From: Microbotryum violaceum
Taxonomy: Eukaryota
Assembly: GCA_001244265.2 (NCBI GenBank)
Contig: CDLV01000014.1
Coordinates: 1,240,001-1,304,000 of the forward strand
DNA: 64,000 nt
Direction: 5' to 3'
Notes under the pieces: generated by a model
What the model was told of the DNA's origin: nothing
Seen by the model: the letters and a program-made list of their open reading frames with translations, nothing else
Database searches by the model: none
Translations under genes and position numbers: made by a program
In this document: piece by piece, positions 22,296-62,200 of the stretch
Numbering within the stretch: the stretch's first letter is position 1
Layout: the number at the start of each line of letters is the position of its first letter

Positions 22296-23819
22296 TGTAA
22301 GGATCACAGCGTGTCCTGACAGCAATACTCGAAGGAAGTCTCCATGTTTGCCACTGGGGTTGATCACCTAACAGTTCGCTGGTTGCAAGCATCGTCAGCG
22401 CTATGGCGTAGTCATGAGGTGCGTGGGCGCGCACTCAAGAGGTCAAGGGTTTGATCCACCCAGAGTACGATCAGCTTTTTGGTTTGTTTCCTTTTTGTTA
22501 ACTGAGGCCTGGCTTCGGAGTTTTTTACCGGTGCCTCATGGCAATCCTTTTTACCCCTGAAGCAACCTTGTGGTGTAGTTATTTGACTGAGTCCCTTTTT
22601 GCCTGGAGCACTCACCTCCCTTTGCTTTTGCCACCCTTCCCCAGAGCTTGGTCCACTCATCATCATCACTTGTACCCTCACTCTTTTTATCCATTTCGCT
22701 GGCAATTAAGTCCGTTACACTTGATTTGCTGCGAGCCTTCGAATTGAATACACTCCTTGGTCGCTCTTGGTTGACTGCCGCCTCCCAGCCAACTTGACCT
22801 CCCCACCGGCCTGGTCAGCTGTTTCTCTGGATTGCTTCCCTCCCTCTTTTGGTTTGATCTCATTGGCCACCATAGTCCATTGTGTTGAATTTCATTCTAC
22901 TACAATCCTTCAAACACTTCAACCTCAGCACTTTTCTTGCCTCGGGCGCCTTTTGCCTAAGCCGCCCCTTTGCTCTCCCGGCCAGGCTGCCCCTTACCCG
23001 CCCTTGCCTGTTCAACTCATGCTAGCGAGCCGCTCTCTCCATGTCGGGGCTTAGGCAAGTCCGCCCTCTCCAGTCTTACTGAGACAATGCCACCGTCTTG
23101 CTAACGCCAGTTTGCCGCTTCCGACCTCGTGAACATCCGGCCATTCAGAACATCGTCCCTTCACAATGTACGTCATCTGCAACCTGGAACTCACCGTAAC
23201 AATAGCTTGTCCACAACACTGGACCTGGTGAATAAGTCCTCCCTCTGTATACGGCCTACAACACGACACCTCTCCGCCTAGATGGCCCACTTGGAGTTCA
23301 ACCTTATGCACTTCGCACTGTGCCTGTCTAATTTGTCATGATTCACTCGCACGCCTGCTTGCCTAGAACTGTGTCCAACTTGCACTCCCCTGTGCCTTTC
23401 TTCTTCTTCTCTACCACTTCCCAACATTAGCCAGACCGTCAATCTTCGGTAGAGAATAGGTTAGTTGCAATCCCATCCACCGCTTCCCAACATTAGCCAG
23501 ACCGCTAATCTTTGGTAGAGAACAGTTCATCTCGCTGCACCGCGCCCGTCTCATCAGACCGCGCCTGTGCCGCTCCACGTCCTCTCCCCGGATTGTCCGT
23601 AGCAACCCAGCCACGTTGACGCTCCAACAGTAGCCCTAGCGGTCGCTACACCCGAGCCCGAAACCTCTTTGACTTCCCACTCAATATGTTGTACTGGACT
23701 TGCTGCAAGCCCTGCAACCGCGTATCCTCCGCGGTTGCCTCTCGGTTGACTGCCGCCACCCCAGCTGACGCTCCTCTCTCGCGTGTAGGCATTGTCATCC
23801 CCTCCGACGATGCCTGTCA
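22296..23819. repeat. solo LTR-B (~715 bp) carrying nested LTR-A2
   Basis: TGTAAGG..CCTGTCA; TSD TGATG/CGATG (one CpG transition). Confidence 0.9.
22883..23686 (+). repeat. solo LTR-A2 (diverged subfamily, long form with intron-like unit 23460-23525)
   Basis: Homologous to 21101-21831; TSD CATTG/TGTTG from host CGTTG seen unoccupied at 20740-20744. Confidence 0.88.
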
Positions 23820-25170
23820 CGATGAGAAGGAAGCTAAGAAACGGAAGAAGGGACCCGCGCTGGGATAGGCCCAGGCGCGGGTGAAATTACTGGCGCGCTG
23901 AGGCACTTGCGCGCATCTAAGTTGTTGAGTGGATGCCAAAGAGGTTTTGGACTTGGGATGTAGCGACCGCTGAGGCTACTGGTGGGGCGTCAATGTAGCT
24001 GCTGTGTGCGATGTCGGCGGTGGGAGAAGTCGTGAGGCGGCACAAGCACGGTCTGTCGAGACGGGTGCAGTGCGGCTGAACAATCTGTTCTCTACCAAAG
24101 ATTAGCAGTCTGGCTTATAATGGGGAGCGGTAGAGAAGAGGAAGAAAGGCATAAGGAGGCACAGGATGGACACAGTTCTATCAGGCAGGCGCGCAGGTGA
24201 ATTATAGCAAGCTGGCCAATCACATTGCAAAGCACATAAGGCCAAACTCTTAGTGGGCCATTGAGGCTGAGAGGTGTCGTGTTGGACAATGAAAATGAAG
24301 GGAAGACTTATCCACGACGTCTGGTATTGTTGGAGGTGGCATGACAGGCATTGTCGGAAGGGATGATGATGCCTACACGCAAGAGAGCAAGAGAGGAGCG
24401 TCGGCTGGGGCAGCGGCAGTTGACCGAGAGGCAACCGCGGAGGATACGCGGTTGCAGGGCTTGCAGCAAGTCCAGTACAACGGACTAAGGTGGCCAACGG
24501 GAGGGAAGCAATCCAGAGAAACAGCTGACCAGGCCCGTGGGGAGGTCAAGTCAGCTGGGAGGCGGCAGTCGACCGAGAGCGACCAAGGAGTGGATTCAGT
24601 CGGAAGGCTTGCAGCAAATCAAGTGTAATGGACTTCATTGCCAGCGAAATGGATAAAAAGAGTGAGGGTACGAGTGATGATGATGAGTGGACCAAGCTCT
24701 GGGGGAAGGGTGGCAAAAGCAAAGGGAGGTGAGTGCTCCAGGCAAAAAGGGACTCAGTCAAATAACTACACCACAAGGTTGCTTCAGGGGTAAAAAGGAT
24801 TACCATGAGGTACCGGTAAAAAACCCCAAAGCCAGGCCTTGGTTAACAAAAAAGAAACAAACCAAAAAGCTGATCGTACTCCGGGCCGATTGAACCCTCG
24901 ACTGTAATACACCCCGTAGGAGTGTACACCAGAGAGCAACAACGAGAGTATCACAGGACCAAAGTATGTGGAATTAACACTGGACACTTGTGTTAGTCGC
25001 TGAGGGGAGACTAAGAGTGTCCAGGCGCGCTCTCCCTTCTCATAAGGCCCAGGCGCACGGGCCTTACACTCTCCACAACCTGAACCAAATTCCCTCCCCT
25101 CCTTGCCTTGTTCCCCCTCCGCCCTCTCCCTCTCCCACTCCTCCAGCGCTATTGTTTCCTCCAAGTGTGC

Positions 25171-59140: not shown

Positions 59141-59203
59141 TGTGAAGAATCCACTCTCCGCTCGGCTCAGGACTTAGGCGCGCGGATCAAGCCGGGCGCA
59201 TCG
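59141..59203 (+). repeat. first 63 bp of an LTR-F, interrupted by Copia D2
   Basis: Reverse complement of ~45350-45412. Confidence 0.85.
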
Positions 59204-62200
59204 TGTGAGATCAAATATCTCCTTCATGTCCTTCTTGTATCTTGTACCTACCTCAACATCCTCCTCTCTTCGTTTTGATCACTTTTGGCCTACTTTTCAC
59301 CACCTTAGCTCTCCCACTCTGGGCCTGGTCTCTGCACCTGGGCCAGGTCCGTGCGCCTGACTTTGGCTGGGCTGACTTGGGCCCAGCCAAATGGCCCCAC
59401 TCTGGTTTCTCTCCTGCTCAAGCAACTTCTTGGTCTGGTCTCCCTTGGTCCTTCGATCAGAGACTTACCACCGCTTGAGCAGGTGAGCACTACTCTTCCT
59501 ATCATCTTTCACCCTTCTAGATGCGGTAACTTACTGTAGTGCTTGAGCAGGTGTGTAACAAGCAACTTCTTGGTCTGGTCTCCCTTGGTCCTTCGATCAG
59601 AGACTTACCACCGCTTGAGCAGGTGTGTAACAAGCAACTTCTTGGTCTGGTCTCCCTTGGTCCTTCGATCAGAGACTTACCACCGCTTGAGCAGGCGTGA
59701 CAACATCACAGGTTATTAGCCCAACCGAGCTACCAGTGCGGCCACCTCCGTGCCCGCCCTTCGCTCTACTTTTTCACCCTTCGCAACATGTCCGACGCCG
59801 GCGCCTCCGCGCCTGAAGCCAAGCTCCGCGAGCCCACGCCCGATGCGCCGCCCTTGCGCCCGCCCACCCACTCTGCGGCCTTCGCAACGACCGAGCTGCT
59901 TCGCAACTCGTCCGGCTACCGAGACTGGGTCCTCGCCATCCGTTCGCGCCTGCCCTCCGGCGTCGTCCGTTACCTCAACACGGGCGTACCACTCGAGTCT
60001 TGGCCTGCTTCGTATGTCCCTCTCTGGGACCACTACGCCTGCTCCTCCATTTGCGCCTCCGTCGATTCGCAAACTGTCCTCCCGGGCCTGTCACCTTACC
60101 TCGACGAACCGCTCGCAGCACCCAAGGTCTGGCAGGCACTTCGCGAACGCTACGGCACCGTCTCTGCTGTCGATCTGCTACCGGTCATCCAACGCCTCTT
60201 CAGCTCCGACCCTGTGCCCGTCACTCCCGACCTGTTCCTGCAATTCCGCGACAGTTTCGAAAACGACGCCCGGCTGCTGCAGGACTCGCAGGTCACCGTG
60301 AACGCCCTTCTCGCCTCGCACTTGCTTGCTCGCCTTCCTTCGTCCTTCGACGCCTGGCGCACCACCTTCGTTGCTGACCAGGGCGATTCCACTGCGATGC
60401 CCTCCGCCACCGAGATCTTCACGCGCCTTTACCGCGATGTCAAAGCCCGCCCCGTCGATACTCCTGTTGCCGCCGTCGCCACCCCGCAGGCCCGCCACGG
60501 CTGTTCAAGGCCGTGCCCAAATCCGTCTTGTCGCAAGTTGCACTGGCTCCGGGAATGCCCCGACACCGCCTGGGCCGCCGCCTACCGAGCTCGTCGCACC
60601 GCCGAGAAGAAGGCCTCCCAGCCAGTCGCGTCACCAGCCGCAGTGGACACACCCAACTCTGTGTCGTTCACGGCCTGTCTCCTCGCAACACCTTCGCCAT
60701 TTCGCAAATCGGCTTGGCTCCTTGACTCGGGCGCTAATCGCCATATGACGAACAACAGGGGCCTTTTTTCCGAGCTTCGCACGGTCGCAGGCCCACGAGT
60801 TGGAGGTGTCGCCGGCTCCCTCCCTTCCACCGGTTGCGGCACCATTTGCATCCAGACTTCAACGGGTCGATCACCGTGTCCAATGTCCTCCTCGTACCGG
60901 ATCTCCCGTGCAACCTGCTGTCCGTCTTCCAGTTGGATCAACTTGGCTACCGCGTCTCCTTCGCATCTCGTTGTGCAAGCATCGCCCGTCCCTCGGGTGC
61001 CGTCGTCGCTACCGCTCAAGCCATCGGGAACAACCTGTACGCCTTGGCACTTGGACCTACACCCTGTACGCCCACAGCCCTCCTCGCCATCCCTACCAAA
61101 GTGTCCTTGCTGACTCTGCACCGTCGCCTCGCGCACTTGCCCGTTGCGCAAATCAAAAACATTGTGCAGAGAGGCTTGGTTACTGGGTGGATTGGGTGTA
61201 TAAGGATCAGGAGCTCCAGGATTTTTACTGCAATGCTTGTCTCGCTTCCAAAGCGCATGCCCTCCCCTTTGCCCGGTCCAAGTCCATTGCCTCTGGCCGC
61301 CTGGATCTCCTCCATGTCGATGTAGCGCAAATGCCTCGCCCTACATTTGGTGGACATCGGTACATGCTGGTCATCATTGATGACTTCTCTCGCAAGCACT
61401 GGTGTATCCTCCTGGCACTCAAAAGTGACGTCTTCCCTCGCCTTCGCGACTGGATCCTTGAAGTCGAGAATGCCACCGGCAACAAGGTGAAGACCATCCG
61501 CTCTGACAATGGAGGCGAGTTCACTCTGCGCAACTTTGTCGACTTCTGTACAAGCAAAGGCATTCGTCGGGAACTCACTATCCCTTACACACCCCAACAA
61601 AATGGGCGTGTCGAGCGCAGCAATCGCACCATCAAGGAGGGTATCCTTGCTCTGCTCTACTCCTCTGGCGCTGATTCGCGCCTCTGGGGTGAGGCTGCCT
61701 TGTACTACGTGCACTGCAAAAACCTGATGCCTCACGCCGGCATTGGTGGTGAGATCCCCGACACCCGTTGGCACGGCTTTGCGCCTGATATCTCCACTCT
61801 TCGCGCATTTGGCTGCCGCGCTTGGCACCACCTTCCCTCGGCCAAGCGCACGGACCTTGACCCCAAGGCTGTACCCCTCCTGTTCGTTGGTTTTGACCAC
61901 CATGCCAAGGCTTTCCGACTCTTCGAGCCGTCCACGCGCAGGATACAACTCAGCCGCAATGTTGTCTTCCGTGAATCCGAGTTCCCTGCACTCCGGCCAG
62001 CCACCGACGTTCGCGCTGAACCAATCCCACTCCCCGTCACTGTTGACGCATACCCTGACCAGGTAGACCCCCTTGAGCCTTCGCTCGTTGCTTCCCCTCA
62101 CTCACTCGCGCCTCGCGCTGAGCCACCTCGACCCGTGCCGGCAGCCCCTGACCAGGGCCCGCACCGTCCCGCCCCTGCCTGCGAGGTCCCTGACCAGGAC

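Follow-up and report, generated by a model that had tools for sequence, protein, structure and literature searches.

Intron-like duplicated blocks in the long terminal repeats of Copia and Gypsy retrotransposons of Microbotryum violaceum

The leader of human immunodeficiency virus type 2 (HIV-2), like that of SIVmac, contains an optional intron in the R-U5 region that is removed from a part of the full-length RNA (PMC3315320, citing Strong et al. 2009). By the account given there, removal of the intron raises the translation of Gag, and the spliced RNA is kept out of particles. Here we describe blocks of similar appearance in the long terminal repeats (LTRs) of fungal retrotransposons, in a stretch of 64,000 nucleotides from Microbotryum violaceum (GenBank assembly GCA_001244265.2, contig CDLV01000014.1, positions 1,240,001 to 1,304,000 of the forward strand) that we call the window. 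Five families of the window are involved, LTR-A1/A2, Gypsy2 and Copia G, C and D. In the long form of each LTR a unit (U1) is followed by a filler and a second copy of the unit (U2), while the short form has a single unit; filler and U2 constitute the block. Like the HIV-2 intron these intron-like parts lie inside what is probably an LTR-derived leader, and HIV-2 makes its leader in both spliced and unspliced form. The HIV-2 intron differs in being 140 nt long, in not being a copy of the upstream leader and in having its splicing shown by experiment (PMC3315320), whereas here a unit is repeated, the elements are fungal Copia and Gypsy and splicing is putative. An earlier note on this DNA had pointed to the five blocks and knew of no description of the kind. 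Precedents do exist, as just outlined for HIV-2 (PMC3315320) and, for introns born by duplication, in PMC3265369. For fungal LTR retrotransposons the statement stands: the full-text literature searched yielded no report of an intron within an LTR.

Birth of an intron by tandem duplication has reportedly occurred in a potato RNA-dependent RNA polymerase gene (PMC4974935). One tandem duplication of a segment that holds AGGT is enough to generate a functional intron (Hellsten et al. 2011, PMC3265369). Our blocks resemble that model in that each duplication has produced a GT..AG segment, excision of which would bring back the original RNA, and in that the short forms of Copia G and Copia C read AG|GT at the junction. 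They differ in two respects from the model as that paper sets it out (PMC3265369). In the model the start of the intron copies the sequence behind the duplication, which the filler here does not, and GT is absent from the junction in the short forms of A2, Gypsy2 and Copia D, which reads AG|A or AG|T in A1/A2, AG|T in Gypsy2 and AG|GC in D.

Other known systems share single features with these LTRs. Introners are mobile sequences that supply one splice site while the duplicated target supplies the other; here likewise one splice site would be brought by an inserted sequence and the other by a duplication, but introner duplications comprise a few bases, while here 18–80 nt are repeated and there are no transposon ends. 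Tandem repeats occur in LTRs, and direct repeats are lost during retroviral reverse transcription. As in such repeats, copy number varies in our LTRs, and long and short forms coexist in one family at 98–99% identity; the classic U3 enhancer repeats, however, have neither fillers nor splice signals, and the present blocks lie near or at the U5 end. RNA of the Drosophila copia element is spliced. In Ty1/Copia elements of Arabidopsis (PMC5580714) and in BARE (PMC3735527) splicing is reported to set the ratio of Gag to Pol. Copia RNA is a substrate of the spliceosome, and a skipped GT..AG segment in the pol region of Copia G, described below, fits with this, but those introns lie in the coding region and not in the LTR.

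All five blocks of the earlier note were found at its coordinates, and its statement that the LTR's own acceptor-like segment is repeated behind a donor-like filler is borne out by the U1-filler-U2 structure of each. The units range from 18 to 80 nt and end in a branch-like motif plus YAG; the fillers range from 10 to 58 nt and start with GTNNGY. In the 5′ LTR of Copia G (40091-40467, forward strand), U1 (40246-40325) is followed by a 17-nt filler starting GTTAGT (40326-40342) and by U2 (40343-40422). The two units are identical at 80/80 positions, and Tandem Repeats Finder reports a period of 97 with 100% matches, equal to the block of 97 nt at 40326-40422. In LTR-A2 (22883..23686, forward strand) the block of 66 nt at 23460-23525 comprises a 23-nt filler from GTTAGT (23460-23482) and a 43-nt U2 (23483-23525) that matches U1 (23417-23459) at 39/43 positions. 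The 5′ LTR of Gypsy2 (30129-29906, 224 nt, reverse strand) has U1 at 30058-30041, a 40-nt filler from GTGAGC at 30040-30001 and U2 at 30000-29983, a block of 58 nt (30040-29983); scored by eye, as were the units of Copia C, its unit is 18 nt with one mismatch or 22 nt with two. The Copia C LTR (54510..54891, forward strand) has U1 at 54770-54823, a 15-nt filler from GTATGC at 54824-54838 and U2 at 54839-54892, the units of 54 nt having one difference by this scoring and the block 69 nt (54824-54892). The final G of this U2 doubles as the first base of the primer-binding site (PBS; GGTTATTCGCCC). In Copia D (LTR 59204..59710, forward strand, PBS from 59711) the block at 59483-59694 is made up of three extra units of 68, 72 and 72 nt (59483-59550, 59551-59622 and 59623-59694), giving a four-copy tandem array with a period of about 72 nt, and the filler is 10 nt long.

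The short form is present in the window for all five families, so that it also exists as DNA. LTR-A1 has one unit both at 21101..21831 (forward strand), with a TATAAT-like box some 75 nt ahead of that unit, and at 11692-12397 (reverse strand). The 3′ LTRs of Gypsy2 (25068-24903, 166 nt, reverse strand) and of Copia G (44565-44843, forward strand) are short with one unit, as are a Copia C LTR with its PBS at 37759..38053 (forward strand) and another at 38286-38591, inverted relative to it. Five LTR copies of Copia D can be aligned, with no extra unit in one, two in one and three in three. Besides the copy described above, 49219-49726 and 62390-62895 (both reverse strand) have three; 45832..46245 (forward strand) has two (68+72 nt) in the alignment, and the solo LTR 48243-48545 (reverse strand) has none and is 98% identical to the long copies.

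Beyond the families of the earlier note we find additional long-form copies and a sixth family. This is C2, a relative of Copia C, which is short in the window at 45224..45412 (reverse strand) and at 37313-37460. Its long form occurs on a contig of the DNA-type sequencing run X2, where the unit 45277-45224 is followed by a 14-nt filler from GTATGT and the unit again. (All sequencing runs were used as contigs; none is on record as RNA, and six are RNA by guess.) The presence of such blocks in both Copia and Gypsy families, claimed in the earlier note, is supported, for six families once C2 is counted. The filler of Copia C is found a second time in the window, identical at 15/15 positions and again followed by a unit (51055..51124, reverse strand), but there it stands after the third mini-LTR of an array like a terminal-repeat retrotransposon in miniature (TRIM), and not after a Copia C unit. 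A variant of it, starting GTACGC, is found on contigs of run X2. The TRIM-like tandem array (51124-51735, reverse strand) is related to the end of the Copia C LTR. In it three mini-LTRs of 95–98 nt (TGTTGAACC..CTAATA) alternate with mini-internal regions of 134–188 nt, each of which runs from a Copia-type PBS to a G-rich tract, with periods of 230 and 284.

All five blocks begin with GT and finish with AG, as expected of a U2-type intron. Because the edges of a tandem duplication can be drawn at any position along the unit, a phase that shows GT..AG might merely have been picked, and so every phase was tested for each block. The GT..AG arrangement occurs in exactly one phase, 1/44, 1/19, 1/81, 1/55 and 1/63 in the respective blocks, and always at the boundary of unit and filler. 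From the frequencies of AG (0.064) and GTNNGY (0.0075) in the window we calculate 4.8e-4 per event, and a probability of 8e-7 for at least four such events among 30 candidates, with a five-fold slack allowed for the ambiguity of boundaries. Chance is therefore excluded as the cause of the signal placement. What is improbable is the coincidence of the duplication edges with the signals rather than the loose intron shape itself. The other large repeat of these LTRs, an 83-nt tandem repeat in the U3 of Copia C, has no AGGT and no GT..AG phase. The earlier note had proposed to compare the blocks with other LTR indels, but only 14 internal gaps of at least 12 nt were found, three of them inside blocks, leaving too few others for a test of enrichment.

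Seven fillers from the window or run X2 all start with GTNNGY (GTTAGT twice, GTATGC, GTATGT, GTGAGC twice and GTGTGT), and each has G at +5. The Copia PBS reads GTTATG, with T at +5, and copying of the PBS therefore cannot supply this G. A CTNAY motif lies 7–23 nt before the terminal AG in each of the four blocks scanned (A2, Gypsy2, G and C), compared with 512/3026 YAG sites (17%) in the background; the motif is a loose one, and in Copia G the sole match sits 7 nt from the AG. In Copia D a branch-like CTTAC was identified by eye. In A2 it is U2 that keeps the CTAAT of both A1 short copies, while U1 has TCAAT. In the oldest block of Copia D, alignment with the 72-nt unit is limited to the start and the final 38 nt (p=0.0097), these 38 nt holding ACTTAC and GCTTGAGCAG. 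The G+C content of the block is below that of the rest of the LTR in four of the five families (0.42–0.48 compared with 0.53–0.60), the exception being Copia D (0.51 compared with 0.52). Block lengths of 58–97 nt are near those of three intron-like references of 80, 59 and 130 nt. Two host introns with which the earlier note had compared the blocks are putative: removal of 52-131 extends the reading frame from 17 to 69 codons, but removal of 288-346 only from 69 to 71, which supports the first and hardly the second. Host-gene-like sequence is confined to the first ~430 bases of the window.

Where in the LTR do the blocks lie? The units of Copia C and C2 extend precisely to the end of the LTR, next to a PBS that starts GGT. 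The blocks of the other families end short of it, by 45 nt in Copia G, 161 nt in A2, 77 nt in Gypsy2 and 16 nt in Copia D, so that they are not accounted for by the PBS. Of the 20 nt that precede U1, 15–18 are pyrimidines in A2, Gypsy2, G and C, and a pyrimidine-rich tract fits the context of start sites in fungi. We infer from these positions that the unit probably begins near the transcription start and corresponds roughly to R, or to R plus part of U5. The 45 nt between block and LTR end in Copia G (40423-40467) start with GGTCAT and include CAGAGAC, in which they resemble the present PBS and leader (GGTTATGAG..CAGAGAC). An older LTR end with a shifted PBS was considered for this segment, but the alignment is not significant (p=0.32).

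Short fungal introns are defined by donor, branch and acceptor signals of this type. The reading we favor, tentatively and at somewhat less than an even chance, is that the blocks are optional introns of the 5′ untranslated region that were created by tandem duplication and are spliced at least in part. It draws on the placement of the signals beyond chance, on the +5 G that the PBS does not provide, on the CTAAT kept in the U2 of A2 and on the start and the branch-plus-acceptor end as the parts of the oldest Copia D block that can still be aligned. The block lengths, the lower G+C content, the pyrimidines before U1 and the skipped pol segment of Copia G agree with it, as do two precedents, the HIV-2 leader as the closest case and duplication-born introns as the closest origin. 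Each block is by its anatomy a tandem duplication within the 3′ portion of the LTR, where the 5′ untranslated leader (R/U5) is probably encoded: a unit with a branch-like motif and YAG is repeated behind a filler whose GTNNGY start resembles a donor. In this scheme, an RNA initiated at U1 or upstream of it would bear in filler plus U2 every signal of a short fungal intron, and their excision would leave exactly the short-form leader. The long form would be passed on by unspliced RNA, and short forms would arise from spliced RNA, or by deletion between the unit copies in reverse transcription or DNA replication. Transcription through the block, its splicing, and any benefit, whether expression that depends on an intron or a division into translated and packaged RNA as in HIV-2, are presumed in this scheme.

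If spliced, these would be, within the literature searched, the first LTR-borne introns in fungal retrotransposons. They would also offer a natural set of very recent, duplication-made introns, each with an intron-less allele beside it, and would make it possible to test how introns arise and how an intron is retained by an element that is copied through RNA, in a host whose gene expression may profit from introns.

Several points weigh against optional introns. The contigs, which end at LTR repeats, speak neither for nor against splicing, which stays putative. A loose intron shape is common, being begun by 196 of the 955 GTNNGY sites in the window. The AG|GT of Copia C and C2 comes partly free, because the LTR ends in A and the PBS starts with GGT. 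T at +3, as in GTTAGT, is unusual for donor sites, and A2 has a TAG between the branch-like motif and the final CAG, so that splicing there need not restore the short form exactly. Copia D is a plain tandem array, and its GT may derive from a CpG transition (GCGTG to GTGTG), the type of change that dominates in the window. Deletion between unit copies gives the same junction as splicing, and so the short forms prove nothing. The relatedness of fillers across families is left unexplained by a view in which donors were simply selected. Were transcription to start behind the filler, the block would be promoter sequence. Lastly, both complete elements, Copia G and Gypsy2, have a long 5′ LTR and a short 3′ LTR.

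This asymmetry deserves closer analysis. In standard LTR reverse transcription a single minus-strand U3-R-U5 gives rise to the two LTRs of a new copy. As the LTRs share this template, neither splicing nor minus-strand events make the 5′ and 3′ LTRs differ; on this model the difference needs an error at plus-strand strong-stop DNA or a change after insertion. The asymmetry is on the same side in 2/2 elements, for which the chance is 0.25. Changes between long and short forms are frequent and do not need splicing, and we draw nothing further from the asymmetry. Copia D shows as much, with two segmental copies 98% alike that differ in unit number and a short solo LTR within one of them.

The main contender, though one we consider rather doubtful, is that the blocks are unspliced duplications, generated by template switching of reverse transcriptase at R/U5 ends or by replication slippage, with the filler added at the switch. 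The splice-like signals would then be by-products of an LTR-terminal A beside a GGT PBS, of YA|G ends and of AT-rich filler. The four-copy array of Copia D, with 0, 2 or 3 extra units among its copies, is what such a process might produce, as are the units of C and C2 that end at the LTR end beside the PBS. The difference between 5′ and 3′ LTRs in both complete elements also fits, through the plus-strand or post-insertion events just named, and the LTRs hold other tandem repeats with no GT..AG phase, such as the 83-nt repeat. Yet duplication of this kind gives no account of GTNNGY with a +5 G in every filler, including those of Gypsy2, A2 and D, whose units stop short of the LTR end, nor of the likeness of fillers between unrelated units, and the fillers copy neither the sequence behind the block nor the start of the LTR. 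If the blocks are indeed unspliced, they mark a hotspot of repeat plus shared filler at the R/U5 end of LTRs, which bears on the mechanics of strand transfer.

The fillers raise a question of their own. Those of Copia G and A2 are nearly the same at 15/17 positions, a score reached in 0/2000 shuffles, and by the shuffle test those of C and C2 (p=0.0005) and of G and C (p=0.0135) are also alike. The units of G and A2 by comparison are unrelated (p=0.82). The G unit aligns weakly with the region of A2 that lies behind the A2 block (p=0.017), which places the filler at non-homologous positions in the two LTRs. Related fillers have a common 5′ end and a 3′ end that varies, with lengths of 14–23 nt. 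The motif AGGTWWGYTGNAAT occurs four times in the window, each time in a block, against 0.35 expected. The earlier note had taken the families to have converged on an architecture that keeps or regenerates an LTR intron. Regeneration is hypothetical, and convergence is now doubtful, since the likeness of the G, A2, C and C2 fillers argues against five independent inventions. It suggests instead one common source, exchange from family to family, or an old descent in which template switching has kept the two units alike.

A number of candidate sources were tried for the filler. A copy of the sequence behind the block is rejected for G (p=0.93), C (0.86), A2 (0.31) and Gypsy2 (0.43); D is marginal (0.064), and its filler of 10 nt may derive from the LTR tail by divergence, GCGTG having become GTGTG. 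Derivation from the start of the LTR, such as a circle junction might give, was examined in 56 comparisons; only one reached p=0.002, and this was not with the filler's own LTR. The PBS begins GGTTAT in every Copia copy of the window, a type that presumably matches the anticodon loop of the initiator tRNA. Read-through copying of the primer tRNA, an idea that came from this presumed tRNA feature, was dropped, as only the first 5–7 bases of the filler resemble the PBS. For Gypsy2, self-priming through complementarity of leader and LTR was also considered, and no match of at least 7 nt was found.

Could the filler have been templated by a single shared source and then passed from family to family through recombination, rather than invented five times? 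The source might be an RNA packaged with the element, or the long-form RNA of another family, copied at the forced template jump at the RNA 5′ end. We hold this origin to be doubtful, although much of what is described above agrees with it: likeness of the fillers of G and A2, C and C2, and G and C while the units of G and A2 are unrelated, a common 5′ end with differing 3′ length, non-homologous places of insertion, and the confinement of AGGTWWGYTGNAAT to blocks. On the other side, neither a further copy of a filler nor a source sequence was found in the window outside the blocks, Rfam gave no match and ARAGORN no tRNA gene in the window, and the fillers of Gypsy2 and D are different sequences.

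Optional splicing and a shared filler can be put together. LTR retrotransposons that replicate through RNA would then keep a heritable optional leader intron whose donor is a short portable filler common to several families, perhaps swapped among RNAs packaged together, and whose acceptor is a copy of the element's own R/U5 kept identical by template switching. The RNA would be spliced for expression and unspliced for packaging, with short forms shed as by-products. As a whole this combination strikes us as unlikely.

It is improbable that the block precedes the start site and duplicates the core promoter or the region of initiation, in the manner of the U3 repeats found in many LTR elements. 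U1 does follow a pyrimidine-rich tract, and in A1 it lies some 75 nt behind the TATAAT-like box, so that the unit may carry the start site and a second copy could serve as a second start. An RNA starting at U2, however, would give only short-form progeny and the long form could not spread; the U2 of Copia C makes up the final 54 nt of the LTR, so that R/U5 has to lie in it; and the donor-like fillers would be unexplained.

The major splice donor of HIV-1 is said to damp premature polyadenylation in the 5′ LTR. A role of the filler as donor only, by which U1 small nuclear ribonucleoprotein bound just behind R would damp premature cleavage and polyadenylation in the 5′ LTR with the block unexcised, would suit the AG-preceded donor-like hexamer behind the unit in every family, the YA|G unit end that resembles a cleavage site and the confinement of the G and Gypsy2 fillers to the 5′ LTR, but it is very improbable given that a state confined to the 5′ LTR is not heritable through RNA, that long forms of D and C occur also as 3′ LTRs or solo copies, and that with a complete acceptor within 58–97 nt splicing would be hard to avoid.

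The contigs of runs X15, X17, X19 and X2 over 29801-49800 end at LTR repeats, and none of the joints listed lies at the Gypsy2, G or D blocks. They are more informative for the pol region of Copia G, where a segment of 130 nt at 42817..42946 (forward strand) has the look of a canonical intron (GTGAGC..CTAAC..TAG). It is skipped in one contig of X19, a run that is of RNA type by guess, and contigs of X17 and X19 end at its donor. This suggests that Copia G RNA meets the spliceosome. Because 130 is not divisible by three, splicing would terminate the reading frame ahead of the reverse transcriptase, and may be a way to make Gag-protease-integrase without that enzyme.

The carriers of the blocks are LTR retrotransposons by their structure, with paired LTRs ending in TG..CA, target-site duplications and Copia or Gypsy pol domains, though Copia C and D are incomplete or nested and LTR-A is left unclassified. 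Copia G is a complete element (40091..44843, forward strand, PBS from 40468) with the target-site duplication GCGAC and the domains RVT_2, rve and Retrotran_gag_2. Gypsy2 (24903..30129, reverse strand) is also complete, with the target-site duplication GTCAA/GTCGA and the domains RT_RNaseH and Integrase_H2C2. By self-comparison the window is a nest of fungal LTR retrotransposons with many nested or duplicated copies, and its long frames hold Copia-type RVT_2, rve and gag domains together with Gypsy-type RVT_1, RNase H and integrase zinc-finger domains (Pfam). Runs of up to 17 G stand immediately 5′ of LTRs of Copia C (54490-54509) and C2 (45413-45420), forming polypurine tracts of G only.

Two further features of the window concern the history of its copies. 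A segmental duplication (45832-50830 and 59204-64000) contains a composite of two oppositely oriented Copia D elements that is 98–99% identical between the two sites. The LTR at its left edge is only 91.5% alike and differs in the number of units, and the short solo LTR 48243-48545 is in the first copy only. The window copies also carry C-to-T hypermutation, either like repeat-induced point mutation or from deamination of methyl-cytosine. Among differences between copies, in pairs of at least 85% identity, 602/724 are transitions, and of the C/T sites with matching neighbors 62% are in CpG and 29% in TCG alone; a TCG bias is described for anther-smut fungi. In the contigs of all four runs, sites with G or C in place of an A or T of the window outnumber the opposite case about fourfold.

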